Positions 25,248 to 59,495 of a DNA stretch of 64,000 nt are shown here, piece by piece. Origin of the DNA: Rhodothermales bacterium (GTDB taxonomy: Bacteria > Bacteroidota > Rhodothermia > Rhodothermales > VXPQ01). The stretch lies in contig OX638295.1 in NCBI GenBank assembly GCA_951812345.1, forward strand, positions 2,542,965-2,606,964, given 5' to 3'. The notes under the pieces were generated by a model, which saw nothing but the letters and a program-made list of their open reading frames with translations, made no database searches and was not told the origin of the DNA. Every line of letters begins with the position of its first letter. The stretch's first letter is position 1. The translations under genes and the position numbers were made by a program.

Positions 25248-25310
25248 GCTTCGTCATTCCTTGCCAGCACGCCTTTCAGCCTCTGAACTTTGCGGACTTG
25301 ATCAGAGTAT
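25248..25310. repeat. GGATAC-TIR element, right-end fragment
   Basis: TGCTTCGTCATTCCTTGCCAGC...CTCTGAACTTTGCGGACTTGATCAGAGTAT matches 25500-25566 of the full copy. Confidence 0.75.
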
Positions 25311-25315
25311 TTATA

Positions 25316-25568
25316 GGATACTCTGATCAAAACCGCTTCGCCCAGCGCTTCACGTTCGCACGTCAGGACATCATGATTCCATCGTTGAAATCTGCGGAAA
25401 ACACTGAGGTTTCGGGCATCGCGGGCGTGAAGCGCCCTTCGGGAGGCTGCGAGAAGCGCGCTGGCTTTGTCATTCCTCATTGTGTGGGACCTGCCACACT
25501 GCTTCGTCATTCCTTGCCAGCGCGCCCCTCGCAAGCCTCTGAACTTTGCGGACTTGATCAGAGTATCC
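25316..25568. repeat. GGATAC-TIR element, full copy (MITE-like, 253 bp)
   Basis: Perfect 15-bp terminal inverted repeats: GGATACTCTGATCAA (25316-25330) and TTGATCAGAGTATCC (25554-25568). The internal core is shared with 45813, 53251 and 59321. Confidence 0.8.
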
Positions 25569-25624
25569 TAATAGTTTTGCGTTCTTGACTTCCCCATTTC
25601 TGGCGAAATATTCGGGTCCCGCTT

Positions 25625-26953
25625 ATGAACGGTTCGATGAACAGGCGAAATTTCATCAGGACATCCGCGCTGGGGGGCACAGCCCTCGGTCTGGCGCCGG
25701 CGACAATTCGCGCGTTTGCGTCCGGCGCGCCCAGCGATGCGATCCGGGTGGCCGTCATGGGGGTGAACAGCCGGGGCGGCGGCCTTGCCAACTCATTCGC
25801 TCAACAGAGTAATACAAACATACGATACATTTGCGATGTTGACGCCCGGGCGACCAGGCAAGTGTCGAGGAATGTGAGCGGAATACAGGATGAGATGGTA
25901 GAGGGAATACCCGATTTCCGGCGCGCGCTGGAAGATCCGGATGTGGACGCGCTGGTCATTGCAGCGCCCGATCATTGGCATGCCCCCGCCACAATCCTCG
26001 GTTTGCAGGCCGGCAAACATGTGTATGTCGAGAAGCCCTGTGGACACAACCCGCAGGAAGGGGAACTACTCGTGGCAGCGCAAGAACGATACGGCGGGAT
26101 CGTGCAGATGGGCACGCAGCAACGCTCCGGGCCCGCAACCATCGAGGCGATCCGTATGATCCATGATGGCGTGATAGGACGGCCGTACTTTGCGCGCACC
26201 TGGTACGCCAATACGCGGGGGCCCATAGGGCGCGGCAAGCCCGCGCCGGTTCCCCGCTGGCTGGATTACGAATTGTGGCAAGGCCCGGCGCCGCGTACGC
26301 CGTACCGCGACAATGTGGTGCATTACAACTGGCACTGGTTCTGGCGCTGGGGCACCGGCGAGGTGTGCAACAACGGCACGCATGAAATCGATGTGGCCCG
26401 GTGGGCGCTGGGCGTGGATTTCCCCGTTCGCGTCAATTCGAGCGGCGGGCGGTACCACTTCGACGACGATTGGGAGTTTTACGATACGCAGGACGTGTCT
26501 TTCGACTTCGAGGAGGGAAAAACGATCACCTGGGAAGGCAGAAGTTGCAACGGGTTTCCTGTGCTAAACCGGGGACGAGGCACTGTGGTGCATGGGACCG
26601 ACGGAACGATATTGGTGGACAGGAACGGGTACGTGCTCTACGACAAGGAAAATGCCGTCGTGAAGGAGGTCAAGGAAAAGGATCTGGAGTCCACCATGGA
26701 CACGACCGGCGGCGGCGGTCAGACGAACCGGCACATAGCCAACTTCCTCGAAGCCATTCGCGATGGGCGTCCGGTGCATTCCTCCATCGACGAAGGACAC
26801 AAGAGCGTCCTGTTATGTCACCTTGCGAACATCGCGCAGAAAGTCGGCGAGACGCTGCACTGCGATCCGGGCAACGGACATATTACCGGGAATCCCGAAG
26901 CCATGGAATACTGGGCGCGGGACTACGAACCCGGCTGGGAACCCACGGTCTGA
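25625..26953 (+). CDS. Gfo/Idh/MocA-family oxidoreductase with TAT signal
   Basis: The twin-arginine leader is MNRRNFIRTSALGGTALGLA. The Rossmann region is IRVAVMGVNSRGG, followed by ...EKP.... Confidence 0.85.
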   Translation: MNGSMNRRNFIRTSALGGTALGLAPATIRAFASGAPSDAIRVAVMGVNSRGGGLANSFAQQSNTNIRYICDVDARATRQVSRNVSGIQDEMVEGIPDFRRALEDPDVDALVIAAPDHWHAPATILGLQAGKHVYVEKPCGHNPQEGELLVAAQERYGGIVQMGTQQRSGPATIEAIRMIHDGVIGRPYFARTWYANTRGPIGRGKPAPVPRWLDYELWQGPAPRTPYRDNVVHYNWHWFWRWGTGEVCNNGTHEIDVARWALGVDFPVRVNSSGGRYHFDDDWEFYDTQDVSFDFEEGKTITWEGRSCNGFPVLNRGRGTVVHGTDGTILVDRNGYVLYDKENAVVKEVKEKDLESTMDTTGGGGQTNRHIANFLEAIRDGRPVHSSIDEGHKSVLLCHLANIAQKVGETLHCDPGNGHITGNPEAMEYWARDYEPGWEPTV

Positions 26954-27010
26954 CGCCATAACATCTCCAGGCCGCACACCCGATCATGGCCCCTGCAACC
27001 CGTACGTACG

Positions 27011-28663
27011 CTATGGCTGTACGGTAATCGTGGCCATGGTTTCGGGGCTTTCGGCGTAACCGTAGCGAATCGCTTTGGTCCGGATCGTAGTGGTCTTTCC
27101 CGGTTCGAGGCGGATCGGGCGGGCATAGAGTTTCCAGTGCGGCGCCTCGCCTTCGTCGGTCGTGTAAGCAATGGAGGCCCCGTCCGTGCCGACCTCGATG
27201 ATGATCTCGACAGGACCATCCTGCTCCGCCTCCACCTCCCTGTCGATATCGTTGCGCCTCAGAATGAGCGGCGTGGCCGTAACGGGCTGCTCCTCGCCCA
27301 TCCACATCTGCCGGACCATCTGATCTTCGGACAGATGCCCTTTTTCGTCGATGTCGAGCATCCAGGCGTCCAACTCGGCGCGCATCCGGTGCAACACGTC
27401 GCGCAGCGCAGGATCGTCCGCCAGATTGTTGACCTCATGCGGGTCGGCCTGCATGTCGTAGAGTTCCTCCGGGGGACGGCTGTCGCGCAGCCACAGTTGC
27501 TGCACTTCATCAAGTTCGCCCGCAATATTCAGGCGGAATATTTCCTGAATGATAGACGAGCGGTTGCGGTACGGAACGAATTGCACGTACGGCTTTTCCG
27601 GGTGAAAATTGCGAATGTATTTGTACCGCTTGTCGCGGGCGGCCCGGACCATATCGTAGACCATATCGATGCGGTCCCGGGCGGCGTAGATATATTCGCG
27701 CGGCGGAGCCTCCGCATCGCCAAGGAAAGGCATGCCATCCATGTGCGCGGGAATGGAAACCCCGGAAAGCGACAACACGGTGGGCCCCAAATCGACCAGA
27801 CTGACAAGCCGTTCGCTGGCCGAACCGGGCGCTTGCTGCCCGGGCGTCCGCACGATGAGCGGAACAAGTATGCCGGAATCGTAGAGCCAGCGCTTGGCGC
27901 GGGGCAGGCCGTCGCCGTGATCGCCCCAGAAAAAGACCACCGTATTGTCGGCAAGGCCATCCTCTTCCAGTTGGCGCAGAATTTCCCCGGCCTGCTCGTC
28001 GAGACGGGCAATGTTGTCATAATGTTTGGCCAATTGCCGCCGCACTTCCGGGGTATCCGGATAGTACGGGGGCAGTTCGAGCGCATTCGGGTCCGTGGTC
28101 GTTTCCTCGTCCGGAGTCACCCAGCTTTGGCTCTCGTGCGTAATCCCGAAATTGAATACGGAAAAGAACGGCTGGCCTTCCTTGCGAAGCGGGCTGCGCC
28201 AGTGCGCCCCCCGCTTGTGCTCGTCCCAGATCGTGACGGGGGTACCGATCTGGTAGTCGGTTTTGAAATCGTTCGTCGTGAAATACCCGGCTGCCCGGAG
28301 ATATTCCGTAAAGGCCTTCACGTACGGAGGAGGCGTAGCATGATACGGCGTGGGAATGCCTGGCGCATCGTGGGTGGTGCGCATATGATGCCCTCCCCAG
28401 CCGTTCTGGTGCATGCCTGTGATGATGGCCGCCCGGCTCGGCGCGCACACCCCGGCGGTAGTGAAGGCCTGCGTGTACCGGGTCCCCTCGGAAGCAAGGC
28501 GATCGAGGTTAGGCGTGTTCGCTACGGCGTCGCCGTAGGCGCCGAACCGCAAGCCGACGTCCTCGGCGGAAATCCAGACGATGTTGGGCCGGTCCTGCGC
28601 AATGGCAGGCGGCGCAGCAAACAAGAGCAAACAAAGAAGCGCAACGGCGAACGGTATTCTCAT
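27011..28663 (-). CDS. Sulfatase (arylsulfatase A family)
   Basis: The signal peptide is [35 protein letters not shown] is present, and the formylglycine motif C-A-P-S-R lies in [16 protein letters not shown]. The start is chosen at M15 of the track ORF. Confidence 0.85.
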
Positions 28664-28884
28664 GGCAACGTTCTGATGAATGGAAAACGAAATATAAGCA
28701 AACATAGCGGATACCGAACGGTCCTGATTTTCCAGGCCTGCCGCCCTTGTTCGCCGTGGATTTTCGAGACATGTTTTTCCGGCGCATGTCCTGAGGATTC
28801 GTTTTCTTAATAGGATTCTGTATGGAGGCCGTCATGCGCACAGCAGGCGGCGTCCGGACAGGGACGGTATTTCGATAAACTCCC

Positions 28885-31824
28885 ATGGACGACCGGATCA
28901 CGATTCGCGGCGCGCGCGCCCACAATCTTCGGAATATCGATGTAGATATTCCGAGGGAGCAACTTGTGGTCATAACCGGCCTGTCCGGTTCAGGCAAATC
29001 GAGCCTTGCCTTCGACACGATCTATGCCGAAGGACGGCGCCGCTATATGGAAAGCCTGAGCGCCTATGCCCGGCAGTTTCTGGGCATGATGGAACGGCCC
29101 GATGTCGATTTCATCGACGGCCTCTCCCCCGTGATCGCCATCGATCAAAAGACGGTCAGCCGCAATCCCCGGTCCACGGTGGGTACGGTCACGGAGATCT
29201 ACGATTTCATCCGTCTGCTTTTTGCGCGGGCGGGCACGCCGTATTCGTACCTCTCCGGCGCCCCGATGCGAAAGCAGTCCGATGACGAGATCATCGACGA
29301 GATCGCGTCCTTCCCCGAAGGAACCCGCATGATGCTGCTGGCGCCGGTCGTACGGGCGCGCAAGGGGCACTACCGGGAACTCTTCGAACAGATGAAGAAG
29401 CAGGGCTTTCAGCGCGTACGCATCGACGGGGAGGCGCAGGAAATCGAACCGGGTATGAAAGTAGACCGGTACAAGACGCACGACATCGAGGTCGTGGTGG
29501 ACCGCATCGTGATCAAGGAAGGCATTCGCTCCCGAATCGCCCGGTCGGCAGAGACCGCGCTCGGCATGGGCGGCGGAACGCTGATCGTGCAGGCGACGGA
29601 CGGGCCGAAAACAGGCGATCATCTGATGAGCCGTCACCTGTTCAGTCCGGAAGACGGGCTTTACTACGAAGACGCCTCGCCGAACATGTTTTCCTTCAAC
29701 ACGCCCTATGGAGCGTGCCCCGAATGCAACGGCCTCGGCAATCGCCGGGAAATCGACCCGGAGCTGGTTATTCCGGATCCGTCCCGCACCATTGCCGAGG
29801 GCGGACTCGTCCCGCTGGGCAAACCGCGCGATATCTGGATATTCAACCAGTTGCGGGCGGTGGCTGCCGCCTGCGGTTTCGGGTTCGACACGCCGGTCGG
29901 GGACCTGACGGAAACGCAGCAGGAAACCCTGCTCTTCGGCGCCGGCGAGGAGAAATTCGACATCGTGTATACCTACAAGAACAGGGAAGTATGCTACCGG
30001 CACCGCTTCGACGGCGTCTACGGGTACATCCGGCACACGTACGACACCACCTCGTCGAACACCCAACGCAAATGGGCCGAGTCGTTCATGCGGCAGATGT
30101 CGTGCAGCGACTGCGGGGGCGGTCGGTTGAAAAAAGAAAGCCTGTCGTACCGGATCGGAACCTGCAACATCGCCGACCTGGTCCGGATGGATCTGGTCGG
30201 GCTGCGCGCGTTTTTCGACGAGGCGGCGTTCTCCGACCGCCAGCAAATCATTGCCCGCCCCATCGTCAAGGAAATCAGGGAACGCCTCGATTTTCTGATC
30301 TCCGTCGGGGTAGGGTATCTGAGCCTGGATCGCGCGGCGCGTACGCTGTCCGGCGGGGAAAGCCAGCGCATTCGCCTGGCGACCCAGATCGGGACGCGCC
30401 TTACCGGCGTGTTGTATGTGCTGGACGAGCCCTCCATCGGCCTGCATCCAAGCGACCATTCCAGACTGATCGATTCCCTGCGGCAATTGCGCGACCTCGG
30501 CAATTCGGTGCTCGTCGTCGAGCACGACCGGGAGATGATCGAGGCTGCCGATTTTGTAGTGGACCTCGGACCGGGCGCCGGAGAACATGGCGGCCATGTC
30601 ATGGGGGCCACGACGCCCGAGGCGTTGCCGATCGGAATAAACGGTCACACAAGCCTTACGGCGGCATACCTCCGGGGGATACGGCGCATCCATGTACCGA
30701 AACGCCGCCGGAACGGCTCCGGAAAGCGTCTGGCGCTCGAGGGCGCCACCGGGCACAATCTGAAAGGCGATCCCTTCGCATTTCCGCTGGGCGCCTTCGT
30801 ATGCGTTACGGGCGTGTCAGGGTCCGGTAAATCCAGTCTGGTCAACCAGACGCTGTATCCCCTGTTGGCTCAACGGCTTCACGGCGCCAGAACCCCGCCG
30901 TTGCCTTTCGAATCCCTGAAAGGCACAGAGCACATCGACAAAGTCATCGACATCGATCAGAGCCCGATCGGAAGAACGCCCCGGTCGAACCCCGCCACCT
31001 ATACGAACCTGTTTACCTCGATCCGGGATTTGTTCGCGCAGCTTCCGGAATCGAAAATCCGCGGATACGGAAAAGGCCGATTTTCCTTCAATACGAAAGG
31101 AGGGCGGTGCGAGACATGCAAGGGCGCCGGTATCGTCAAACTGGAGATGAATTTTCTGCCCGACGTGTATGTGGAATGTGATACCTGCAAGGGCCACCGC
31201 TACAACACGGAAACGCTGGAAGTACGCTACAAGGGAAAGAACATTGCGGACGCGCTGGATATGACGGTATCCGAGGCGCTGGCGTTTTTCGAACACATCC
31301 CTCGCATCGAACGGAAACTGCGCACACTCGACTCGGTGGGGCTGGGATATATCCGGCTCGGACAACCCTCCACCACATTATCCGGCGGCGAGGCGCAACG
31401 GGTCAAACTGGCGCGGGAGCTTTCGAGACCGGGAACCGGGCGCACCCTGTACATTCTCGACGAACCGACCACGGGGCTGCATTTCGAAGACATCCGGCAC
31501 TTGCTGGTGGTCCTCGATGCGCTGGTGCAAAAAGGCAACACTGTGCTGATCATCGAACACAATATGGATGTGGTCAAGGTAGCGGACTGGATCGTGGACA
31601 TGGGGCCGGTCGGCGGTACGCAGGGCGGGCATATTCTGTTTTCGGGCGCCCCGGAAGACCTCGCCCGAACGCATACCGCTACCGCAGAATATTTACGGGA
31701 GGAGCTGGAACGATTTGACGAAACGTCCGAGGAAGAAGATACCCGGAGCCTTGACCTGGACGCCCTGACTTCCGACGAAGCAGGTGAAGAAGAACTTGCC
31801 TTTCCCCTCTCTTCGTCCGCCTGA
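28885..31824 (+). CDS. uvrA: Excinuclease ABC subunit A
   Basis: 979 aa. [44 protein letters not shown] is present, with two ABC modules and zinc-finger CxxC pairs. It also has an acidic ~40-aa C-terminal tail. Confidence 0.95.
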
Positions 31825-31848
31825 CCGCACAGACCCTTAGCCGTACCG

Positions 31849-32241
31849 ATGCCGGAACCGCCTTTTATACCCGCCTATCGTAAACCGGACGCCGAAGGCG
31901 TCTGGATGCAGTTCGACAATACGGTCGCGATCCGCCACATCGTGCGCGCGGAAGATACGTTCGAGCAGGCCGCGGCGGCCGTTTTCAACTACCTGAAAAA
32001 AGCGCAGGGGGATTTCCCCGACTGGCCGAGGGTGCTCTACCTTGATCTGGAAGGACACACCGGGGAGTACGCCGGATTCGACGCCGACTTTTACGAGTTC
32101 CAGCAGGAGTTCTTCTTTTCGACGATGGCGCCGTTCCTGACCGGGTTTCATATGCCGCTTACCGGGGCTCTCGTCAATCCGGAAACGCAACGCAACGACC
32201 TGCCGGACGAACTGGTCGTGAGAATGCCGGACGCCTCCTGA
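31849..32241 (+). CDS. Hypothetical protein
   Basis: 130-aa ORF with balanced, acidic composition, starting 24 nt after uvrA. The competing antisense ORF (31837-32469) is R/S/P-rich. No family is recognised. Confidence 0.45.
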   Translation: MPEPPFIPAYRKPDAEGVWMQFDNTVAIRHIVRAEDTFEQAAAAVFNYLKKAQGDFPDWPRVLYLDLEGHTGEYAGFDADFYEFQQEFFFSTMAPFLTGFHMPLTGALVNPETQRNDLPDELVVRMPDAS

Positions 32242-32266
32242 CAGGGCAGCAAAGACAACGGATAGC

Positions 32267-33298
32267 TCAGGCGTCTCCGGACCGTACGGCCACGTTGCTG
32301 AGAAGATCGGAGGTTCCATCCCGGTCTTTCTTTCCGTTCCGGTGGCGCACGTCCAGGACCTGAATGCAGATTGCGCCCAGGACGATAAACAGTCCGGACA
32401 GGATCTCGAGTGCGGACGGTTGCGTCCGGATGGTTGCCCATGCAAGCCATAGTGCGGCAAGGGGAACAAGGTTGCCGTAGAGCACCACCCGGGTCGGTCC
32501 CAGTTTTTTCAGCGCGCGCACCTTGGCCCACTGGCCGATACCGACACCGACAGCGCCCCCGAAAATAATAGCTATCCAGGTCCAGGCGCCGAGTTCCAGC
32601 CAGGATTCGCCTGTGAGTGCGGGCAGGGCGATAGCGAGATAAACCATGCCGCCAATAGCGGTACGGGCCGCCACCATGGCCGTGGCGCCATACCGGGCCG
32701 CAAGGGGTTTGATGAAATGCAGTTCGGCAACCGCCATGAGCAGTGCCAGAACGAGTAACAGATCGCCGAGCCAATATCCCTTGTCAGCGCGAAAACCGTC
32801 GAAGGCCAGCGTGAACGTGCCGAGCGCCGCCAGCACAATGCCGACGTATCCAAGACGGCCGATGCGTTCCGTACCCAGCACGTATCCCAGCGCACAACTG
32901 AGCACCGGGCCCAATGCCAACCACAAGGATGCCCGGGCGCCGTGGGTAAGTCCAAGTCCTTCAATGCCGAGCCACGGGGCAAGCGTGGCGCCCAGAATAG
33001 CAACGACAAGCAAACGCGGCCAATCTTTTTTATGCACCCGGGGAAAGAGGCGAGTGCCCTTCGCCGTTTCTCCAGCTCCAAAAAAGAGCTGAAAATACAG
33101 CATGGTGATCATGGCCGCGCCCCCGAGAAGAAATCGGGAGACGGAAAACCCGATAGGAGACATCTCGCGAAGCGCCACTTCGGCGAGTACGAAATTCCCG
33201 CCCCAAAGTATGACAAAAACCAGCAACAGGACATGGTGGGGCCAGGCGGCCTCCTCACTTCCGTCGAGGTCAGGTTGCTTGTGTTCGTCCGGATTCAT
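32267..33298 (-). CDS. EamA/DMT-family transporter
   Basis: There are about ten hydrophobic segments in two EamA halves (VFVILWGGNFVLAEVAL..., ...VVLYGNLVPLAALWLAW). Confidence 0.8.
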   Translation of the reverse strand: MNPDEHKQPDLDGSEEAAWPHHVLLLVFVILWGGNFVLAEVALREMSPIGFSVSRFLLGGAAMITMLYFQLFFGAGETAKGTRLFPRVHKKDWPRLLVVAILGATLAPWLGIEGLGLTHGARASLWLALGPVLSCALGYVLGTERIGRLGYVGIVLAALGTFTLAFDGFRADKGYWLGDLLLVLALLMAVAELHFIKPLAARYGATAMVAARTAIGGMVYLAIALPALTGESWLELGAWTWIAIIFGGAVGVGIGQWAKVRALKKLGPTRVVLYGNLVPLAALWLAWATIRTQPSALEILSGLFIVLGAICIQVLDVRHRNGKKDRDGTSDLLSNVAVRSGDA

Positions 33299-33393
33299 TG
33301 GGGAAATGCTGCTTCACGGGTCGCTCCGCAAAAATAGGCAAACGACCGGACATAGAAAGTGGTCCGCCGGACGCACCACCCTGTCGGGATATG

Positions 33394-37491: not shown

Positions 37492-37548
37492 GGAGGGCCT
37501 TGCATGCGGACTGGAGCCCCGACATGCCTGGCCCTCCTTTTTCTTTTT
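37492..37548 (+). terminator. Strong intrinsic terminator with no annotated upstream gene
   Basis: Outer stem GGAGGGCC (37492-37499)/GGCCCTCC (37530-37537), inner stem GCATG/CATGC, then TTTTTCTTTTT (37538-37548). Confidence 0.5.
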
Positions 37549-37551
37549 ACA

Positions 37552-37590
37552 GGATACTCCGATTGCGTCTGCAAATCTCAGAGTGTATCC
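37552..37590. repeat. GGATAC-TIR element, minimal TIR-to-TIR remnant
   Basis: GGATACTCCGAT...TCAGAGTGTATCC: both ends resemble the family TIR with only ~15 nt between them. Confidence 0.45.
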
Positions 37591-37605
37591 TGATCCTGTA
37601 GCGCC

Positions 37606-39007: not shown

Positions 39008-39040
39008 GGATACTCTGATCAAGACCGCTTCGCTCAGCAC
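39008..39040. repeat. GGATAC-TIR element, left-end fragment
   Basis: GGATACTCTGATCAAGACCGCTTCGCTCAGCAC matches the first 33 nt of the family. Confidence 0.6.
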
Positions 39041-39047
39041 GTACGCA

Positions 39048-45812: not shown

Positions 45813-45960
45813 GGATGCTCTGATCAAGTCCACTTCGATCAGCGCTTCACTTTCACGCGTAAAGGACGATATGCTTGCATCGTTGAAACCAGCGAAAAAC
45901 ACGGCGGATTCGGGTTGTCTCGGCCATGAAGCGCCCTTCGGGAGGCTGAAAGAGGGGCGC
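45813..45960. repeat. GGATAC-TIR element, left end + core (no right TIR)
   Basis: GGATGCTCTGATCAAGTCCACTTCGATCAGCGCTTCAC...GAAGCGCCCTTCGGGAGGCTG aligns with the family core. Confidence 0.7.
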
Positions 45961-45998
45961 TATAAGAAGAAAAACGCCCTCGCATGGGAAGGATCGGG

Positions 45999-48129: not shown

Positions 48130-48187
48130 ACAGTTCGGGCGGTACCGTTAAACCGGGCAAGCGGTGCTCCGCCGATGGGGGATTGCC

Positions 48188-48415: not shown

Positions 48416-48484
48416 GTCGTGCTTCTATACTGTTCCGTTGAAAAATAGGGGCTTTCGCTTGAAAAATCCCAGGAACCCTTTCCC

Positions 48485-49399: not shown

Positions 49400-49511
49400 C
49401 GGGGCAAAAGGAAAGGTCGGAAGGAATTCGATCCCGGTTTTCAGGAGAAGCAGTGCGGGTGCAGGGGCTTGCTCTTATAATACGGATACGGACACAATGC
49501 CTGCACAGCCG

Positions 49512-50162: not shown

Positions 50163-50398
50163 GATAGCGGGTGAGGTTTTCCGGACAGATAAGACAAAAA
50201 GTGACCGTTAAAACGGTTTGACGGTCAGAAGTGTCCGGGAAACGGATACTGCGCCAAAAAGCATACAATCTGGCGCACGGCAGGGGTTAATGCACCACAT
50301 GTGTCGTACAAACGATCTTGTGCGCCACTTTGACGGAAAAGTGTCGCATAAATTCATTTATGCGTCATAGGCGTCGATCAAAATACCCGCCCCCCGCC

Positions 50399-50911: not shown

Positions 50912-51076
50912 AGTATTAGCCGATATTACGCCAAATGACACGGGATGCGAATTACGCAGCACAAAGGCCCTGCATGAAATTTCGAATCGGACGAAAGGCT
51001 TCGTGATCCAGATTCCAATAGCCGCCGTAATACGCCTGTCAAGCGACGGGCGTTCTCCCGCCCATCGGTTCCTCTT

Positions 51077-51970
51077 CTACCACACCTCGCCCGGTGCGTA
51101 CAGCTTCTTCGCCGGTCCGATCAGCTTCTTGTCGGGCTTCGTTACACGCCGCCGGGCATCTTCCTGGTAGGGAAGGTGCTCCAGCACGTAGCGCATGCAG
51201 TTGAGGCGCGCCCGCTTTTTGTCGTCCGACTTGATCACCACCCAGGGCGACGTTTTGGTGTCGGTCGCCGCGAACATCGTTTTCTTCGCCTCCGTGTACT
51301 CGTCCCACAACGAGAGCGACCGGAGGTCCACGTCGCTGATTTTCCACTGCTTGAGCGGGTTCCGGGCGCGCGACACGAACCGCCTAAGCTGCTCCTCGCG
51401 GCTTACCGAGAACCAGAACTTGAAAAGGTGGAATCCGTCGTTCACCAGCAGTTCTTCGAACGTCGCGACATCTCTCAGGAAACGGAGGTGCTCGGCCGGC
51501 GTGCAAAAACCCATTACCGGCTCGACCACTGCCCGGTTGTACCAGGAACGGTCAAAGAAAACGATCTCCCCCCTGGACGGCAGACACTCCACATAGCGCT
51601 GGAAGTACCACTGCCCACGCTCCCTTTCGGAAGGAACCGGCAGCGCCACCACCAGAGCGCTCCGCGGGTTAAGGTGCTCCATGAACCGCTTGATCGTTCC
51701 CCCTTTCCCGGCCGCGTCGCGCCCCTCGAAAAGCAGCACGACCCGCTGGCCCGTCTCCTTGAACCACCGCTGCATCTTCAGCAACTCGACCTGCAGTTCC
51801 GCCTTCCGGCGCTCGTACTCGGCGCGGGCGAGCTTGGTCCTGTACGGGTAAGACGCGCTGATGATCTCCCGCCTGTCAGCCTCTTCGACCTTATTACGAA
51901 TCTCGACAGGGATATTGGCGGTCGGCAGCAGAAGCCCCAACTCATTGCGTTCCTGTGTGGAGACGGTCAT
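51077..51970 (-). CDS. ppk2: Polyphosphate kinase 2
   Basis: The Walker A motif is FEGRDAAGKGGTIKR, followed by ...FDRSWYNR..., the PPK2 family pattern. Confidence 0.9.
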   Translation of the reverse strand: MTVSTQERNELGLLLPTANIPVEIRNKVEEADRREIISASYPYRTKLARAEYERRKAELQVELLKMQRWFKETGQRVVLLFEGRDAAGKGGTIKRFMEHLNPRSALVVALPVPSERERGQWYFQRYVECLPSRGEIVFFDRSWYNRAVVEPVMGFCTPAEHLRFLRDVATFEELLVNDGFHLFKFWFSVSREEQLRRFVSRARNPLKQWKISDVDLRSLSLWDEYTEAKKTMFAATDTKTSPWVVIKSDDKKRARLNCMRYVLEHLPYQEDARRRVTKPDKKLIGPAKKLYAPGEVW

Positions 51971-52084
51971 GGAAAAACCCTGCTTCTATCAGAATGGTTG
52001 CTATGCCCCGAGGATAACACGGATCGTACGACCCGATGCTCCAGAGTTTCCCCTTCCGGGTCGCGCACGGAGCACTCGAAACCC

Positions 52085-52735
52085 TCAAAACGGCCAACGA
52101 AACTGCGCGGCCAATTTGTCCCTGTCCTCTTCCAGAGTAGGGATAGCCCGCTCCCCCACCGCCCGGGAAAGATTGCGGTTGGTGGTATGAATCTCGCCAA
52201 TCAGACGCGGATACCAGGAAAAAGCTGCCTTCAATCCCTGCTCATCGTAGAAGTCGGTGGCGGTTATCTGCGCCGGTACCAACACTGTCACCGTGAACTG
52301 GTTCAGTTGGGTGACGGTCTCTTCAAGGGTTTCCAGCAACGGTGTACCCCCGATGATATTACTGATGATATATTTACTCAGCGATGCGAAATTCGTGCCA
52401 TCGAAGGCGGCCTCCAATACGCTACCCCGGTACAGGTAATACAAATCGCTCGGCAGCAAGTCCGGTTGTCCACCTTCCTCGATCTCGGCCACTACTGCGA
52501 GGTGCTTCTGGAGCTTCCCGTTTTCCTGGTCGAGATGGGCGTAAAGCACCTGAAATTCAAGAATCAGGCTGTCGTAGTACTGGAGTTGCATGGACCGCTC
52601 ATGCTGCCTTTCCTGGTAGCCGTTAAACAGGAAAGCGAGGTAGACGCCGAGGAAAACGATCACCAGTTCCATGGCGAACCAGCCCAGGTTCTTATTCTTG
52701 ATAAACCTCGTTTTGAAAAACCTCGTGATAAACAT
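52085..52735 (-). CDS. Hypothetical membrane-anchored protein
   Basis: There is a single N-terminal TM (WFAMELVIVFLGVYLAFLF), then a soluble region. The start is chosen at M22 of the track ORF. No family is recognised. Confidence 0.4.
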   Translation of the reverse strand: MFITRFFKTRFIKNKNLGWFAMELVIVFLGVYLAFLFNGYQERQHERSMQLQYYDSLILEFQVLYAHLDQENGKLQKHLAVVAEIEEGGQPDLLPSDLYYLYRGSVLEAAFDGTNFASLSKYIISNIIGGTPLLETLEETVTQLNQFTVTVLVPAQITATDFYDEQGLKAAFSWYPRLIGEIHTTNRNLSRAVGERAIPTLEEDRDKLAAQFRWPF

Positions 52736-52782
52736 GTATCGCCTCCGTACAGGGAGATATGCAAAAAGGTGAAGCAGCCGCC

Positions 52783-53211
52783 CTACTCCTCCGCCCACGG
52801 ATCGTACGACCCAACGCTCCAGAGTTGCCCTTCCGGATCGCGGACGGCGAAGAGGCTCCCGCCATAGGGCTGCTCTTCCAGTTCCATGACAATACGCGCC
52901 CCCTTTGCTTTCACATGGTCGTAGAGCGCCTTGATGTCGCTTTCGCCGACCACAATGTAGGCCGCCTGCGTGAGTTTCCCTTCGGGTTCGGAGGCGACCA
53001 CATGATGCCCATGTTCGTCGTCCCGCATGGAACCGAGCATGACCATGCCACCGCCAAGCGTGAGTTGGGCATGGGCAATTTTGTCCTCGCCATGCGGGAC
53101 CACAAGGCGTCGTTCAAAACCAAGCACGCTGCACAGCCACTCGATGGCGGCGTGCGCATCGCGGTAGCGCAGGCCGGGAATGACGGTGGATCGGAGGGTT
53201 TCCTGCTGCAT
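52783..53211 (-). CDS. Glyoxalase/bleomycin-resistance (VOC) family protein
   Basis: 142 aa. ...IPGLRYRDAHAAIEWLCSVLGFE... and ...EEQPYGGSLFAVRDPEGQLWSV... are present. Confidence 0.8.
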   Translation of the reverse strand: MQQETLRSTVIPGLRYRDAHAAIEWLCSVLGFERRLVVPHGEDKIAHAQLTLGGGMVMLGSMRDDEHGHHVVASEPEGKLTQAAYIVVGESDIKALYDHVKAKGARIVMELEEQPYGGSLFAVRDPEGQLWSVGSYDPWAEE

Positions 53212-53250
53212 GGATTACGGCCAGTATGATTGCAATCTTTTGAGAATATA

Positions 53251-53399
53251 GAATACTCTGACCAAAACCGCTTCGCTCAGCACTTCACGTTCGCGCGTAA
53301 ACGACATCATGATTCCATCGTCGGAATCAAGCACTGCGAATTCGGGGCGTCGCGGACATGACGCGCCCTTCGGGAGGCTGCGAACTTAATCAGAGTTCC
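53251..53399. repeat. GGATAC-TIR element, short form with both (degenerate) ends
   Basis: GAATACTCTGACCAAAACCGCTTCGCTCAGCAC...GCGCCCTTCGGGAGGCTGCGAACTTAATCAGAGTTCC. Confidence 0.7.
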
Positions 53400-53536
53400 T
53401 GTGCTCGACAAGCACCGAGCGACGCACCCGCGCGTACTCTCTCCCGCCGCCCGCCGGAACGAAATAACCTGTCGTACCGGAACGGCATGGCCTCTCTCCC
53501 GTCCACGCGCCGGAACGGAAACAACACGCAAACGAT

Positions 53537-54679
53537 ATGAAGGATACTCTGAAGAAAGAACTGCTCATGCCCGCTCATAACCTCTCCGGCCCCATGCGCT
53601 CCTTTCTTTCCCTCTCCGGTATGCTTCTGGGTCTGCTTGCTCTCTCGGCGGCCGGATGCGACAGCGATTCCGGCATGGAGGAGGTCACGCCGGACCCCAA
53701 CCGCGATTACCCGGCGCTTAAAACTCTTGCCGTACATCCTGTTGGCGTGGCCATCCAGGCGGTACACCTGTCCAGCTCGGACCGCACCACCGTGATCAAG
53801 AAGGTATTCAACAGCATCACGGCCGAGTGGGAAATGAAGATGAACCCGATATCCGTCGGGCCGGGATCGTACAACTGGACCGGAGCCGACGCGCTGGTGG
53901 ATTTCGCGGAGGAAAACGGCATGCAGGTCCACGGGCATACGCTCGTGTGGCACCAGACGGCGCCATCCTGGATGGAAAACTTCGGGGGGGACGACGAGGC
54001 GTTCGAAGAGGCCGTAAAAGAATACATCACGACCGTCATAGAACGCTACAAGGGACGCGTCGTGAGTTGGGATGTGATCAACGAAGCATTCGACGACGAA
54101 CGGGGAGCATTACGCAACAGCGTGTTCCGGCGCAGGATGGGCGACGATTACATTGCCCGGCTGTTCCAGTATGCCCGGGAAGCCGATCCGGACCTGCTGC
54201 TTTTCTACAACGATTACGGGCTCACCTGGAGCCTGCCCAAGCGCCGCGCCGTGATGAGGATGCTCGACGACTTTCAGGAGCGGGGCATCCCCATAGACGG
54301 CGTGGGATTGCAAATGCACATAGCCTGGGACGGCCCGTCCCTCGAAGTAATCACCGAAACCATGGACGAGGTGGTGAAGCGCGGCCTGAAACTGCATCTC
54401 TCCGAACTGGATGTGCGCATCAACACGGACGGTAGCCTGCAATCCTGGAATACGGCGCGGGGAAATATTCAGAAGGAGCGCGTCAAGGAGGTCGTAGCCG
54501 CCTTCAACCGGATTCCCGAGGAGCAGCGCTTCGCCATCACCCTGTGGGGACTGCGCGATCCGGACACCTGGCTCATCGATTTTTACGACCGGCCGGAGTG
54601 GCCGCTCCTGTTCGATGCGAGACTGCTCCCAAAACCCGCCTATTACGGATTTGTCGAGGCGCTGCAGGAGGCGCAGTGA
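53537..54679 (+). CDS. GH10 endo-1,4-beta-xylanase, lipoprotein
   Basis: The acid/base region is WDVINEA and the nucleophile region is HLSELDV. The lipobox is LSAAGC. The real start may be M20 (53594). Confidence 0.9.
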   Translation: MKDTLKKELLMPAHNLSGPMRSFLSLSGMLLGLLALSAAGCDSDSGMEEVTPDPNRDYPALKTLAVHPVGVAIQAVHLSSSDRTTVIKKVFNSITAEWEMKMNPISVGPGSYNWTGADALVDFAEENGMQVHGHTLVWHQTAPSWMENFGGDDEAFEEAVKEYITTVIERYKGRVVSWDVINEAFDDERGALRNSVFRRRMGDDYIARLFQYAREADPDLLLFYNDYGLTWSLPKRRAVMRMLDDFQERGIPIDGVGLQMHIAWDGPSLEVITETMDEVVKRGLKLHLSELDVRINTDGSLQSWNTARGNIQKERVKEVVAAFNRIPEEQRFAITLWGLRDPDTWLIDFYDRPEWPLLFDARLLPKPAYYGFVEALQEAQ

Positions 54680-54722
54680 ATCCTTAGTATCTACTGCACC
54701 TCCTGCCTTCCGCGCTTGTTCT

Positions 54723-57002
54723 CTACTTCACCAGCATCATTCGTTTGGTCTGCACAAAGGAGGCGCCCGCTTCGAGGCGGTACAGATACACGCCGGACGT
54801 AAGCCCGGAGGCATCGAACCGCACCGTGTGCTCGCCGCCAGCCAATGAGGTATTGTCGAGCAGCGCAGCCACCTCCCGGCCCAGTACATCGAATACGCGC
54901 AGCGTCACCTGCTCCGCTTGCGGCAACTGGAAACGAATGCTGGTAGACGGATTGAACGGATTCGGGTAGTTCTGCGCCAGGGCATACGCTTCCGGCAGTT
55001 CCGGTTCGTCTTCGCTGGATACGGGAACGTACTGGCTACTGTGAATCATCGTCACGGTTTGCCACTGGCTCGGCGTATTCCACCAGGTGTTGTCCACTGT
55101 GGGGTTGAGGCTCCAGGTAATCTGGTGCACGCGCGGCGGCTGGCCTCCTCCCCCGTCGGCGTCGTTCAGCGTAATCGTAAAAGGCATGAAGCGGGGGGCG
55201 TCGTTCTCCCCGGGAAAAGCAGCGTCGGCGTCGCCGGTATACTTAACCTGCGGGGTAGGAAAATACGCCAGCATGTTGTAGCCATCCGTATCCATCTCGT
55301 ACGCGGCGCCGCCGACATTCGGCTTGTCGCCGGGACCACCTTCGGCGGCCACGTTTGTTTTGCCCGTCGCATCGTTCGCGCTCCCGTGGGGGGACAGGCG
55401 GAACTGGTAATCGGGGAAGGCGCCGCGCATCATATCGCTGTGCGGAGAACCGCCCAGTATCGATCCCCCGGCGTCGCGCACGTCGTAGTTCCCCCATCCG
55501 AGTTCAATGGAATCGAACTGCCAGGCGCCTTCCGGTCCATCGGCGGCCGGGGCGAAATCGAGTATGTCGTCAGTAACTTCGGCATAGATCCATACCTCCG
55601 GAGACAACCCCATGGCGTCGTCTCCCTCGTAATACGCCACCCAGACGGATGCGGAGAGATCGTCGTTGTTATCGGGCAATGTGACACCGAGCTCGGAGAG
55701 CTGCGAATGCGTATCGTCGACGACGAACGGCATGGACCCCTCTGGGAAACCCTCGTTCGATACGGTCCTCGCATTATTGACCGCGTTAAACAGCATCTCG
55801 GCCTGCGCATCCGTCAACGACAGGATCGGCGGCGAAATGGCAAGGTCCGGGTTGTCTATTTCCACCGCGCTGTTCGATACGTCCGGGTTCTCCACTCCGG
55901 ATGCGCTCAGGCTGGTGACCGCATAGTAAAGCGTCGAACCGGAAGACGAAAACGCATAAGGCACCTCGACCTCATGCCGCACCTCGTAAGGAGAAGCGGA
56001 CACCTTCTGCAGAAACGTTACGTTCGCCGCGCTCACATCCGTGATCGGATCTCCACTGAAATACACATTGTATCCCCCGAAATCGGGATTGTGGGTCCAG
56101 GAAATCACATTGGCGGGACCGTCGGCTCCCACGCTCACGCCGGACATGGCCGCAGGCAGCCCCGAAGCATCCCCCAGATCAAGATCGGCCGGGCCGATAA
56201 ACACGTCGTCCAGATAGATGGGGCCGTTGGAATCTCCGCCTATGTTCGGGTCCCAGTCCCAGTGCACGCCCAGAGACCAGACATTATTCCATTCGAATTC
56301 TGTCCACAGATCGGGCCGCTGCCGGGTATCCGGCCCCAACAGATCGAGCCCGATCTCGAAGTTTGCCCAAGAACCGGCGTATATCCACTGCGCTTCGTGT
56401 CCCGAGATGGTGCCGTCTGTCTTGCCTGCTTCGAGTTCCGCGTAGGTCGGGGGCGGGAGCACCACCGACACCTCGTGCCATTCCCCGTTGCGCATGTCGG
56501 TCGGTATGATCCAGCGCAAGCGGAAGGGGTTATTTCCGGTTTCTCCGATATTCTCCGCGAAATCCTCGAGCTGAATCCCGAGGGCATGCTCATTTCCGCC
56601 GGACGAAGCGTTGGCCGCATCCACCAGAATGCGAAAATGGAGGACGTTCTCGGCCTCCCGGTTGGCCGTCATATCGCGAGGCATGCCGTCAGGAAGGTCA
56701 GTGGCGCCAAAACGAAACCCGTGGTATGCGTAGGTGCCCGGGCTGAGTTCCAACACCTTGTTGTCGCTGCCATCCGGATCGTCGACTACCTCGCCGCCGT
56801 CGACCCGTGGAATATCGAGATTCACCCCATCCACGAAAAAGATGTAGTGATCGCCAAGCGCCGGAGCCTGCGCCTGGGCATTATGCGCAACGACGCCCGT
56901 GAAAAGCAGGGCTGCGGCAGCGAACCCTGCAGATCCGGCTATGAAACGGTGAACTGCACGACCGAAGAAATGGATGGTCTGGTGATTATTAGCGGTATGC
57001 AT
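54723..57002 (-). CDS. Large secreted protein with T9SS C-terminal sorting domain (probable carbohydrate-binding modules)
   Basis: The C-terminus NYPNPFNPSTSIRFQLPQAEQVTLRVFDVLGREVA...GVYLYRLEAG...KRMMLVK is a Por/T9SS tail. There is a signal peptide ending AQAQA. The start is chosen at M20 of the track ORF. Confidence 0.75.
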   Translation of the reverse strand: MHTANNHQTIHFFGRAVHRFIAGSAGFAAAALLFTGVVAHNAQAQAPALGDHYIFFVDGVNLDIPRVDGGEVVDDPDGSDNKVLELSPGTYAYHGFRFGATDLPDGMPRDMTANREAENVLHFRILVDAANASSGGNEHALGIQLEDFAENIGETGNNPFRLRWIIPTDMRNGEWHEVSVVLPPPTYAELEAGKTDGTISGHEAQWIYAGSWANFEIGLDLLGPDTRQRPDLWTEFEWNNVWSLGVHWDWDPNIGGDSNGPIYLDDVFIGPADLDLGDASGLPAAMSGVSVGADGPANVISWTHNPDFGGYNVYFSGDPITDVSAANVTFLQKVSASPYEVRHEVEVPYAFSSSGSTLYYAVTSLSASGVENPDVSNSAVEIDNPDLAISPPILSLTDAQAEMLFNAVNNARTVSNEGFPEGSMPFVVDDTHSQLSELGVTLPDNNDDLSASVWVAYYEGDDAMGLSPEVWIYAEVTDDILDFAPAADGPEGAWQFDSIELGWGNYDVRDAGGSILGGSPHSDMMRGAFPDYQFRLSPHGSANDATGKTNVAAEGGPGDKPNVGGAAYEMDTDGYNMLAYFPTPQVKYTGDADAAFPGENDAPRFMPFTITLNDADGGGGQPPRVHQITWSLNPTVDNTWWNTPSQWQTVTMIHSSQYVPVSSEDEPELPEAYALAQNYPNPFNPSTSIRFQLPQAEQVTLRVFDVLGREVAALLDNTSLAGGEHTVRFDASGLTSGVYLYRLEAGASFVQTKRMMLVK

Positions 57003-57209
57003 AAGAGCCTCGCTCAGGAAGGAAATGGCGTAGTAAGTTGTAAGATGCCTATGGTGCAAGATTGACTATTTACGCGAAAATTTCACGTAATGCAAGGATT
57101 TTCCATATAATGCCTATGCCTACATGCTGTGGCATGTACATAACGGTTCTGTAGAGTATAGTGCTGTATTAGGTCCGTATCGGTTTCGTATCGCAAGAAG
57201 AAAAAAACC

Positions 57210-59312
57210 ATGAAAAAAAACCATATTCGCAAGGCACGCGCGTTATTGCGGGCAGGCATCCGGTATGCCGCAGGCGTCGTTTCGGTTTTTCTCCTGATTC
57301 TTCCGGCACAGGGGCAAGGCTTTTTTCGAACCGAGGGTAGGCAGATCCTCAATCGGGACGGCGATCCCGTCGTCATACGCGGACTCGGGCTGGGCGGCTG
57401 GCTTGTGCCGGAGGGATATATGCTCCACATTTTTCCCCCCGATGGCGGCTCTCCGCGTTCCATCCGGGCACAGATAGCGAGCCTGATCGGCGAGAGCGGA
57501 GCGGATCGTTTTTTCGAGATATACCGGGCCAAATACGTCGCAGAAAAAGATATTGCGGCTATCGCCGAATGGGGATTCGATCATATTCGCCTGCCCATGC
57601 ATTACAACCTGCTCTTCGACCCGGATACCGAAACGTTCATCGAGAGCGGGTTTAAAACGATCGACGACCTTCTCGACTGGTGCCGCAAGTACGATATCGA
57701 TCTCATTCTGGACATGCACGCCGCGCCCGGCGGCCAGAACCATGGCGAGATCAGCGACAGCGACGGCGTGGCCCGTCTCTGGACGGAGCCCGACCCGTAT
57801 CAGGACCAACTGGTGACCGTATGGACCGAGATCGCCCGACGCTACGTAAACGAGCCATACATCATCGGATATGACCTGATCAACGAACCCGTCACGCCCG
57901 GCTGCCGCGACGGTGCAGCCTCTTGCGCCCCGGGCAGCCCCAACGAGTGGACTGGAGAGGAGCAATCGGAAGCCCTGCGCGCGCTGTACGTGCGGCTCAT
58001 CGAAGCCGTCCGCCAGATCGATACGAACCATATCATTTTTATAGAGGGGAATTACTACGCCACCACATTCCCTCCGGAACTGGAAAACCTCCCCGACGAC
58101 AATATCGTCTACGCCTTCCACAAGTACTGGAACGCCACGGACGTCGGCACCATCAACTATCTTCTGGATTTTAGCGAAAAAACCAACGTACCGCTCTGGC
58201 TGGGCGAATCGGGAGAAAACTCGAATCCGTGGTTCTTTGCGGTAACCCGGCTCGCGGAAAGACACGGGATCGGCTGGAACTGGTGGACGCACAAGAAAAT
58301 AGCGACGATCACCAGCCCGCTTTCCGCGCCGTTTACGCCGGGCTACAAGGATGTACTCGACTACTGGAACGGCAACGGGCCCCGTCCTGCCCCGCGAGCA
58401 GCCAGCGAGGGACTCTTCTCCATGGCGGAGGGGTTGGACCTCGATTCCTGCATCACGCGGCCCGGCGTCCTTGCCGCGCTTTTGGATCCGGATTACGCCA
58501 CGCTGCGCAAACCCTTCAAAGAACATCCCATCCCCGGCATCGTCAACGCCGTGGATTACGATATCGGACATGCGGGCACCACCTACCACGACAGCGATCT
58601 CATGCGGGTCGATGGACGAGACGGGGTCGGCAACCAGGGGTATGAATACCGAAATGACGGAGTGGATATCGAGAAATCCAAAGACCCGGAAGGCTTCGAA
58701 TATAATGTGGGGTGGATCCAAACGGGCGAATGGCTGACCTGGACCGTGCAGATCGAGAAGACGGGAATCTATGACGTCGAAATTCGCGTCGCCGCCGATG
58801 CGGCGGATAATGGCGGCGTCTTGCACCTCGCGCTGAACAACGAACGGCTTGGCGCCAATGTAGTTGTGCCCGTCACCGGCGGGTGGCAGACGTGGCAATC
58901 GGTATGGATGCGCGATGTGACGCTGCCCGCCGGCGAGCATATCCTGAGAATGAACGTGCGCAATGGAGGGTTCAACGTGAACCGGATGCGCTTTACGCTG
59001 AAGGAAGTCACCTCCGTCGAACAGGCGGACGAACTCCCGGAGGCGATGCGGCTGGAAGGAGCCTGGCCCAATCCGTTTTCCGGAGAAGTCAATCTGGCGT
59101 TCCGAACCGACCGACCCGTACGGGCCCGCCTCGAAATGGTGGACTTGCTGGGACGCACCGTGTATACGCATGCCCCGGAAGCGTTCGGGACGGGAGAACA
59201 CACGTTGTCCGTAAGCGCCGACCTGCCTCCGGGTATGTATTTCTCGCGCCTGTTTCTGGAAGACGGGGAACGCACGCACCTCCTGACAGCGCCCGTAACG
59301 GCTATACCATAA
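57210..59312 (+). CDS. GH5 glycoside hydrolase + CBM6-like module + T9SS C-terminal domain
   Basis: The catalytic region has DLINEP (acid/base) and WLGESGEN (nucleophile). The CBM6-like region is VNAVDYD...GWIQTGEWLTWTV...GGWQTWQ.... The tail is WPNPFSGEVNLAF...GMYFSRL. Confidence 0.85.
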   Translation: MKKNHIRKARALLRAGIRYAAGVVSVFLLILPAQGQGFFRTEGRQILNRDGDPVVIRGLGLGGWLVPEGYMLHIFPPDGGSPRSIRAQIASLIGESGADRFFEIYRAKYVAEKDIAAIAEWGFDHIRLPMHYNLLFDPDTETFIESGFKTIDDLLDWCRKYDIDLILDMHAAPGGQNHGEISDSDGVARLWTEPDPYQDQLVTVWTEIARRYVNEPYIIGYDLINEPVTPGCRDGAASCAPGSPNEWTGEEQSEALRALYVRLIEAVRQIDTNHIIFIEGNYYATTFPPELENLPDDNIVYAFHKYWNATDVGTINYLLDFSEKTNVPLWLGESGENSNPWFFAVTRLAERHGIGWNWWTHKKIATITSPLSAPFTPGYKDVLDYWNGNGPRPAPRAASEGLFSMAEGLDLDSCITRPGVLAALLDPDYATLRKPFKEHPIPGIVNAVDYDIGHAGTTYHDSDLMRVDGRDGVGNQGYEYRNDGVDIEKSKDPEGFEYNVGWIQTGEWLTWTVQIEKTGIYDVEIRVAADAADNGGVLHLALNNERLGANVVVPVTGGWQTWQSVWMRDVTLPAGEHILRMNVRNGGFNVNRMRFTLKEVTSVEQADELPEAMRLEGAWPNPFSGEVNLAFRTDRPVRARLEMVDLLGRTVYTHAPEAFGTGEHTLSVSADLPPGMYFSRLFLEDGERTHLLTAPVTAIP

Positions 59313-59320
59313 ATACTATA

Positions 59321-59495
59321 GGATACTCTGATTAAAACCGCTTCGCTCGGCATTGCACTTTCGCACGTAAGGGACGTCATGATTCTATCGTAGGAATCAG
59401 GGGAAGCGCTGCGAATTCGGGGCATCGCGGGCGTGACGCACCCTTCGGGAGGCAGAGAGCGGTGCAGGCGTGACGCGCCCTTCGGGAGGATGAGA
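59321..59495. repeat. GGATAC-TIR element, left end + core with internal 33-bp duplication
   Basis: GGATACTCTGATTAAAACCGCTTCGCTCGGC... is followed by the GCGTGACGC(A/G)CCCTTCGGGAGG module, present twice (~59431 and ~59468). Confidence 0.7.

Follow-up and report, generated by a model that had tools for sequence, protein, structure and literature searches.

Background

The closest described counterparts of the repeats treated in this study are type II MITEs (miniature transposable elements with inverted repeats; for the definition see PMC10969869), and among them the families BrickBuilt, MITE239, MITE464/PgRS and MITE700 of Porphyromonas gingivalis, which have IS5-family insertion sequences (IS) of the ISPg series as partners (PMC4596501). 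The repeats described here are found in a stretch of 64,000 nucleotides (called the window in the following) from the genome of an uncultured Rhodothermales bacterium (contig OX638295.1, positions 2,542,965 to 2,606,964), in which one full copy is bounded by perfect terminal inverted repeats (TIRs) of 15 bp. They very probably constitute a type II MITE family with a length of about 253 bp, which is non-coding and shares only its TIRs with an IS of the IS5 family.

The families of P. gingivalis resemble the Rhodothermales repeats in being non-coding, in possessing TIRs that match those of a resident IS5-family IS exactly or almost exactly, in having an interior that is unrelated to this IS, and in the frequent occurrence of partial or nested copies (PMC4596501). 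There are also clear differences. The two groups share no sequence similarity, and their TIRs begin with GAGACC in P. gingivalis and with GGATACTC in the family described here. The interior consists of a tandem minisatellite in the former and of nested inverted repeats in the latter. Moreover, the duplications caused by BrickBuilt vary in length, whereas the flanks of the Rhodothermales MITE display a clean 4-bp TTAA signal, and the host clade of the P. gingivalis elements is not Rhodothermales.

The type of the IS5 group is IS5 of E. coli. The putative parent of our repeats agrees with this group (NF033581) in its length of about 1.2 kb, its one DDE_Tnp_1 transposase, its ends starting with GGA and its 4-bp duplications at TA-centred sites, whereas the MITE itself is devoid of a transposase and has 15-20 bp in common with the IS. 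The Correia elements (CREE/NEMIS) of Neisseria are another group of abundant intergenic repeats that are bounded by TIRs and have targets of the TA type. They measure 100-160 bp, duplicate TA, share transcripts with adjacent genes, form hairpins and may contain promoter elements. To our knowledge, no parent transposase has been identified for the Correia elements, and they have no sequence relationship to the Rhodothermales MITE.

The ATR elements of Neisseria, which are associated with ISNme1, and QMITE2 of Coxiella are likewise small and TIR-bounded, with duplications that fade with time (PMC10969869, PMC4596501). With type II MITEs in general the family has in common the AT-rich intergenic targets, transcripts that are predicted to form very stable stem-loops, and a similarity to the parent that is limited to the TIRs (PMC10969869, PMC4596501), but it differs from them by being G+C-rich inside. 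An orientation bias toward the downstream gene was measured in the present study; the word 'orientation' is absent from the review PMC10969869. Overall, elements of this kind are ordinary, but the present family has not been described before (no published description was found in the literature), its core is rich in hairpins and it is mostly oriented with the downstream gene.

Results and discussion

Copies of the family in the window and in related genomes

Copies were located with nhmmer and a profile that was built from 24 full copies and has a model length of 254 positions. In this way every copy listed in a preliminary description of the window, which had claimed a multi-locus family with perfect 15-bp TIRs, was recovered; one or two further scars were noticed in addition, giving a total of eight to nine pieces in 64 kb (Table 1). 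All of them have the same orientation (+). The TIR 15-mer GGATACTCTGATCAA has nine matches in the window at no more than two mismatches, as compared with 0.13 expected by chance. In the copy at 25316 the two perfect TIRs occupy positions 25316-25330 and 25554-25568, and with 93.7% identity this copy is closest to the family consensus among 32 full copies.

Exact matches to a 26-mer were sought in one genome per species, which gave 37 stretches, all from metagenome-assembled genomes of Rhodothermales and distributed over eight species genomes. Twenty-five copies align end to end with the window copy at 76-89% identity, and the loci that were fetched (designated by L and a number below) hold 32 full-length copies (243-266 bp) besides many partial ones. 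About 30 sites were counted in a partial sample of OX638293. In the two DNA runs X1 and X2, in which the window itself is covered to depths of about 37 and 20, the element reaches approximately 75-180 times the depth of its flanks, a value that sums all organisms in the sample and is not the copy number of the window's genome. There was no MITE match on plasmid records. A search of the whole window against Rfam 15 at gathering thresholds gave two tRNAs as the only matches, and a permissive search of positions 25200-25620 gave nothing better than E = 0.9, with all hits far below the gathering scores.

The earlier statement that no copy encodes a credible protein is borne out by the alignment of the 32 full copies. 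Substitutions are distributed over the three codon positions without periodicity (0.105/0.117/0.122, p = 0.23), and in 17 of the 32 copies indels put the frame out of register with the consensus. A plus-strand frame free of stops extends over the whole element in 22 copies (15 in one frame and seven in another), as compared with a single copy on the minus strand, and an AAGGA-N4-ATG is present at model position 59 (window 25372-25576). Despite these stop-free plus frames a coding element was rejected because of the missing codon periodicity and the frequent frame-shifting indels. The open plus-strand frame does, however, produce spurious N-terminal extensions of downstream open reading frames (ORFs), for instance in L087 (4259-5449) and in the window (25211-25588). 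In size and in lacking coding capacity, the repeats thus correspond to type II MITEs, which are non-coding and measure about 50-1000 bp.

Target site

The flanks of 52 two-ended MITE copies are biased at exactly four positions on each side, toward T-T-A-A. The counts on the left side (positions -4 to -1) are T39 T30 A32 A42 and those on the right side (+1 to +4) T44 T31 A29 A36, and the positions 5 and 6 outwards are without bias. Direct matches over all four positions occur in 11 copies, and three of these tetranucleotides are non-palindromic (TTTA, TCAA and TTAC).

It was also observed that copies of the MITE and of the IS described below often adjoin the end of another copy across one TTAA-like tetranucleotide (abutting ends in Table 1). 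Accordingly, new insertions seem to prefer the duplicated target next to a copy already in place, which would explain the head-to-tail arrays.

An IS5-family element with the same ends

In the first 37 loci no transposase was found between distant pairs of TIRs. A scan in which the TIR had to be followed by a base not occurring at any MITE end led to the locus L056 in OZ246975. The element at L056:852-2022 has a length of 1171 bp, the ends GGATACTCTGATTTAATCC and GGATACTCTGATCAATCC and a single reading frame for a protein of 315 aa. This protein matches NF033581 ('IS5 family transposase') with E = 2.4e-99 and 332 bits, the cut-off being 140, and in addition PF01609 (DDE_Tnp_1, E = 1.9e-30) and PF05598. 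It is encoded in exactly this form at at least ten places in OZ246975, and ten fetched copies are 99.7-100% identical. Exact direct duplications of 4 bp flank seven of the ten fetched copies and also the L056 copy that was read first and is possibly one of the ten. The tetranucleotides are TTAA, TTGA, TGTA, TAAA, TTAA, TTGA, ATGT and TAAG; since they are mostly non-palindromic, they represent true duplications. With a DDE_Tnp_1 transposase, a length in the range of about 1-1.5 kb, short TIRs and a duplication of fixed length the element has the properties of an IS5-family IS. Among the IS5-family proteins encoded on the plasmid records searched, none exceeds about 50% identity to its transposase.

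The MITE and this IS have 15-20 bp in common at each end only, and their interiors are unrelated. At one end 15 of 15 bases match, at the other 13-14 of 15. Since the similarity is confined to the ends, the repeats are to be classified as type II MITEs according to the definition in PMC10969869. The further properties of such elements, namely TIRs, target duplication, many copies, kinship to an autonomous element by the TIRs alone, and mobility, were all found. Judging from these sequences, an IS5-type enzyme almost certainly mobilises the MITE via the shared ends. Two conserved GTCATTCC boxes in the core of the MITE were considered as transposase sites common to both elements; they are absent from the parent IS and this idea was rejected.

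Filled and empty sites

For the comparison of insertion sites, syntenic regions from seven related genomes were collected in two scans; five of them were informative, and at the nucleotide level they are about 80-90% identical to the window. The site at 59321 is filled in the window and in L167 and empty in L166, L168 and L169. In L167 the left junction lies exactly after TTAA, and the empty site of L168 reads ...AATGATTTAA-GGAAAAG (the hyphen marks the junction). At 53251 the window, L167 and L166 possess the same left junction (ATATA-GG), which is absent from L168 and L169, and a different right part is lost in each filled lineage. At 39008 the window has retained 35 bp, L177 a piece of positions 1-35 together with a copy of positions 1-151, and L242 a right-end remnant; the three lineages have therefore decayed differently. 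In L177 the site at 25316 contains a left-end remnant of 28 bp, and no copy is recognisable in the alignment with L242. The stub at 37552 is absent from L177 and L242, and L166 holds about 108 bp of unrelated sequence at the site 45813. The site upstream of uvrA is empty in the window and occupied by full copies in L177 (flanks TTAC/TTAC) and in L242 (TTAA/TTCC).

There are also signs of younger events. Two copies in OX638293 that are located at different sites with differing flanks are 96.4% identical, which implies a fairly recent movement in this genome. Furthermore, one contig of 1015 nt from X25, a sponge metatranscriptome, joins L028 5791 to 6056 and thereby omits the second MITE copy of this locus (L028:5791-6056), indicating a relative with an empty allele in that sponge sample. 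Most copies in the window are old insertions that are common with sister species and drift at about the rate of third codon positions: copies at the same site are 79-88% identical across species, and the third codon positions of neighbouring genes 70-90%. In the window organism the family looks largely fossil.

Decay follows recurrent forms, in which either positions 1-40 are joined to approximately 110-253, or positions 1 to approximately 140-150 remain with or without the right end. Whole hairpin domains are lost in this way, and slippage across stable hairpins would give such forms. In the short form at 53251 the right hairpin domain is deleted internally and the degenerate right end, up to 53399, reads CTTAATCAGAGTTCC. 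The end-to-end structure at 37552, where the left end is joined almost directly to the right end as described before, is a deletion scar. Equally visible is the duplicated hairpin module that had been noted in the 59321 copy, as a second UUCG-hairpin module at 59459-59508 (model 103-152). The fragment in front of the full copy begins 12 bp to the left of its earlier start at 25248 and was grouped in the repeat-finder families D12 and D14; a like tandem junction exists in L025 at 6728-7239.

A trace of an insertion exists even within a gene. The gene 53537-54679 starts with ATG AAG GAT ACT CTG AAG and contains, at 53538-53553, the layout TGAA-GGATACTC-TGAA, that is, 8 nt of the TIR and the repeated 4-bp target. 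The same gene start in four related species reads ATGAAGAAA or ATAAAGGGG, without the 12 bp that account for four extra residues. The insert is a target duplication plus a TIR stump, which was left in frame once the rest of the insertion was deleted. At the uncertain remnant 21162, about 26 bp are absent from relatives, though the alignment is ambiguous there.

Genes were called with a log-odds model of codon usage that was trained on long ORFs and is crude, but has no built-in preference for an orientation. The preliminary description had placed the copies mostly in convergent or tail-to-head gaps. This applies to 45813 (convergent) and to 59321, 39008 and 37552 (co-directional), but according to the codon-usage calls the copies at 25316 and 53251 lie between divergent genes.

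Table 1 Pieces of the MITE family in the window, related sites and flank classes in fetched loci (positions without a locus number are those of the window)
Feature	Position	Strand	Remarks
Full MITE copy, 253 bp	25316-25568	+	Model 1-254, E = 8.6e-83
Right-end fragment	25236-25310	+	Model 176-252; head-to-tail with the full copy, 5 bp apart
End-to-end stub: left TIR, ~11 nt, right TIR	37552-37590	+	GGATACTCCGAT..CTCAGAGTGTATCC
Left-end remnant	39008-39042	+	Model 1-35; minus-strand genes on both sides, 44 bp apart
Left end and core, right part gone	45813-45961	+	Model 1-149; convergent neighbour genes
Short form with degenerate right TIR	53251-53399	+	Model ~1-139 (profile: 53253-53383 = 3-139)
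Left end and core, right end lost	59321-59508	+	Model 1-144 at 59321-59463; family D5
12-bp in-frame scar	53542-53553	+	TIR match, right after ATG of gene 53537-54679
Possible left-end remnant, uncertain	21162-21180	+	GGACACTCCGATCAAAACC; two TIR mismatches; 6 nt before ATG of gene 21187
Empty target site upstream of uvrA	28804-28820 (TAAT ~28807-28810)		Full MITE there in two relatives
Copies with inverted-complement flanks	L007:7612-7885, L008:3525-3798, L016:3377-3559, L026:1385-1657
Abutting ends	L157:2606-2620, L162:2606-2620, window 25298-25330, L025:6975-6990

Some other features of the window were noted in passing. A G+C-rich hairpin (GGAGGGCC...GGCCCTCC and then TTTTTCTTTTT) at 37497-37551, just before the stub at 37552, is kept in L177 and L242 and resembles an intrinsic terminator of the plus strand. 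The 563-aa plus-strand ORF 51176-52867, which served as a synteny query, is probably not a real gene; the codon-usage model favours minus-strand genes at 51077-51970 and 52085-52798 over it, and the syntenic loci were still retrieved. Unrelated to the MITE family are the tRNA genes at 1750-1837 and 17990-18076 and repeats of 584 bp (98% identity, direct and inverted order) that fill the region 3208-8118.

Probable mode of spread and points that weigh against it

Taken together, the family probably spreads and decays as follows. An IS5-type DDE transposase would act in trans and bind the GGATACTCTGAT(C/T)AA ends, excise the element and insert it at T(T/A)(A/T)A sites, with duplication of 4 bp. 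New copies would often land on the TTAA beside a resident copy, giving head-to-tail arrays. Resident copies, as observed, then drift and shed hairpin domains, so that left ends with core, the short form, stubs and the 12-bp scar arise. The preliminary description had offered two readings, a non-autonomous transposable element family or small structured RNAs. The first is now substantiated by the many copies, by the flank bias of exactly 4 bp on each side of two-ended copies, by the IS5-family IS with the same TIRs in OZ246975, and by filled and empty sites. A reading as stand-alone RNA genes is not supported: the element matches no Rfam family, its two strands fold equally, and copies at the same site drift without compensation. 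The fold as such is real, and it covaries between subfamilies.

Nevertheless, several observations do not fit easily with a transposase-driven MITE. No copy in the window has a perfect 4-bp duplication, and the full copy is flanked by TATA and TAAT. Four copies in other loci are flanked by inverted complements (TTAT/ATAA, TACA/TGTA, TATT/AATA and ATAC/GTAT; Table 1), and in L008 this match spans 8 bp (GCACTACA / TGTAGTGC). Well under one such case is expected by chance, as estimated by hand from the flank frequencies, and a simple cut-and-paste reaction with a 4-bp stagger does not predict them. They could stem from template switching within the palindrome or from insertion into pre-existing palindromes. 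In addition, an intact parent IS was not found for the window's genome, which was not searched whole. The only IS relatives in X1 and X2, which are not assignable to the window organism with certainty, are about 94% identical to the element of OZ246975, are present at 1-2 times genome depth and have internal deletions of 351 bp and 505 bp, with positions 1465-1617 uncovered. These deleted relatives suggest, but do not prove, that the window organism is without a working enzyme. Finally, the uneven conservation of the element, its GTCATTCC boxes and its orientation bias exceed the needs of a purely selfish neutral element.

Fold of the core

The predicted fold comprises the TIR stem (P1), a stem P2 of model positions 30-45 with 107-122, a stem P3 of 125-152 with 203-229, and the central hairpin P4 of 170-174 with 181-185. 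The two GTCATTCC boxes are unpaired and 94-97% conserved, which makes them the most conserved part after the ends. The copy at 25316 folds at -123.2 and -127.2 kcal/mol on its two strands, each with z = -8.1. Over the 32 full copies 96.9% of the alignment cells in the TIR stem are paired, and the share of all cells that pair is 89%, as compared with 87.3% after shuffling (none of 500 shuffles as high). Cells that are changed on both sides of a pair number 75 versus 34.7 +/- 4.7 in the shuffled data (0/500), pairs with two-sided changes 24 versus 16.9 (3/500), and the covariation score amounts to 0.145 versus 0.115 (0/500) and to 0.040-0.056 if the partners are slid by 1-3 columns. The non-Watson-Crick cells include 141 G-T and 155 A-C. 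There is no excess of G-U over A-C and nothing in these data points to one transcribed strand; an assignment of the RNA strand from G-U pairs was therefore rejected, the fold energies being equal as well.

It is possible, although unlikely, that both the covariation and the inverted flanks are purely mutational and result from template switching in DNA hairpins, whereby one arm is copied from the other. Such quasipalindrome correction is an established mechanism (work of Ripley and of Lovett). It would account for the four copies with perfect inverted-complement, non-palindromic flanks, including the one over 8 bp, and for complementary changes in both TIRs, as in L025 (GGATGC..GCATCC) and L177 (GGAAGC..GCTTCC), and the equal folding of the two strands is expected of a structure at the DNA level. 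However, the copies of three species at the site 53251 differ at 15-21 positions with 6-9 one-sided and no two-sided changes in the stems, so that correction in place must be infrequent. More two-sided changes separate the copies upstream of uvrA in L177 (9654-9908) and L242 (9662-9919), where 11 were found, six of them keeping Watson-Crick pairing, and about three were expected. The compensated pairs include both TIRs (GGAAGC..GCTTCC versus GGATAC..GTATCC), but the two copies belong to different subfamilies, and two separate insertions explain the six pairs equally well. Two insertions at one TTAA/TTAC hot spot are the simpler reading and likely the correct one, if not a replacement by gene conversion. 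Pairing is thus apparently kept along the transposing lineages between subfamilies and not by the host in resident copies. We infer a role of the fold in spreading, or in the tolerance of an insertion as it arrives, and not as a host gene.

Orientation, promoters and RNA

The gene downstream of the element has the same direction as the element at 51 of 67 sites if all sites are counted. In a strict set of 29 independent sites this holds for 24 (p = 5e-4); the set is restricted to copies of 100 nt or longer whose neighbouring genes were called with confidence and lie no more than 600 bp away, and sites common to several species were merged. These 29 sites comprise 13 co-directional gaps with the element in sense and three with the element in antisense orientation (p = 0.021), 11 divergent gaps and two convergent ones. 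Many copies fill the entire gap and end 2-40 nt before the next start codon. A replication-strand bias was rejected as the cause, since in OX638293 the orientation agrees with the sign of the GC skew at about 18 of 28 sites only (hand tally), a weaker link than that to the downstream gene.

Both copies of L028 contain a rightward sigma-70-like site (TTGAAA-16-TAGATT), with a terminator-like hairpin on the opposite strand. The site is present in three of 35 copies, and a site that passes these criteria lies at another position in a fourth copy. Since neither a promoter-like site nor a terminator is present inside the element in the full copy of the window or in the copies of L026, and the site is so rare otherwise, an internal promoter was rejected as a general feature. 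The contigs of X25 carry no strand information, derive from a different sample and may partly represent DNA. In them the depth is 495-689 over 25393-25575 and 40 over 25332-25392, and 0 on the immediate unique flanks. In terms of the model, depth is high from about position 78 to the end and low on about 17-77, whereas the DNA runs are roughly even. The same step is found on both L028 copies, right after the -10-like hexamer. The element hence occurs in RNA with its right two-thirds better represented, and no more than that can be concluded.

These data bear on a further explanation, by which the repeats are, or have become, functional cis-acting RNA modules (for instance a structured leader, an element governing processing or stability, or a portable promoter in some subfamilies) that spread by transposition and are kept for their effect on the neighbouring gene. 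The sense orientation at 24 of 29 sites and in 13 versus three co-directional gaps speaks for it, and so do the copies that reach to 2-40 nt before a start codon, the covariation (75 two-sided cells versus 34.7, 24 pairs versus 16.9), the GTCATTCC boxes, which are unpaired and conserved, and the depth step of X25 with its recurrence in L028. Even so we consider it improbable. Copies at the same site evolve at about the rate of third codon positions and lose pairing without compensation, and resident copies lose piece after piece by deletions that differ from lineage to lineage. The promoter-like site is limited to three of 35 copies and absent from the full window copy and those of L026; the strands fold equally without a G-U excess (141 versus 155), there is no Rfam match, and the RNA evidence is unstranded, from another sample and possibly DNA.

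A related proposal concerns the core. It might be an orientation-dependent cis-acting module that is needed for tolerance beside genes or useful to them, and could act as a leader or a processing or stability element on the sense strand, as a portable promoter in some subfamilies, or through harm done by the antisense strand. With such a core, the preference for the sense orientation (24 of 29), the conserved unpaired GTCATTCC boxes, the covarying pairs between subfamilies and the RNA depth step would all be accounted for, but we regard it as doubtful.

That the repeats are palindromes of the repetitive extragenic palindrome (REP)/REPIN type, moved by a REP-associated tyrosine transposase (RAYT, HUH-type) and matching the IS5 ends by coincidence, is hardly credible: they are intergenic, hairpin-forming, present in many copies and paired alike between copies, but their unit of 253 bp with defined ends is unlike REP units, which measure 20-40 nt, make no target duplication and are associated with a RAYT gene, the flank signal is exactly 4 bp with direct duplications in some copies, and at the end 15 of 15 bases agree with those of an active IS5-family element of the same clade (a RAYT gene was not searched for).

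Conclusions

The orientation bias, the covariation between subfamilies and the copies with inverted flanks are real features of the family. That bias and a fold that is kept between subfamilies, but not in residents, suggest selection at the moment of insertion. Should the core indeed prove to be an orientation-dependent module, this would be a case of an IS5-type MITE rewiring transcripts at many loci in these bacteria.

Much of the puzzling intergenic sequence in this uncultured Rhodothermales clade belongs to the family, which should be masked before these genomes are searched for small RNAs, promoters or CRISPR-like repeats. Its copies show how MITEs die, by the deletion of hairpin domains and with in-frame scars left behind, and its shared and lineage-specific insertions can serve as markers to order the species splits within the clade.

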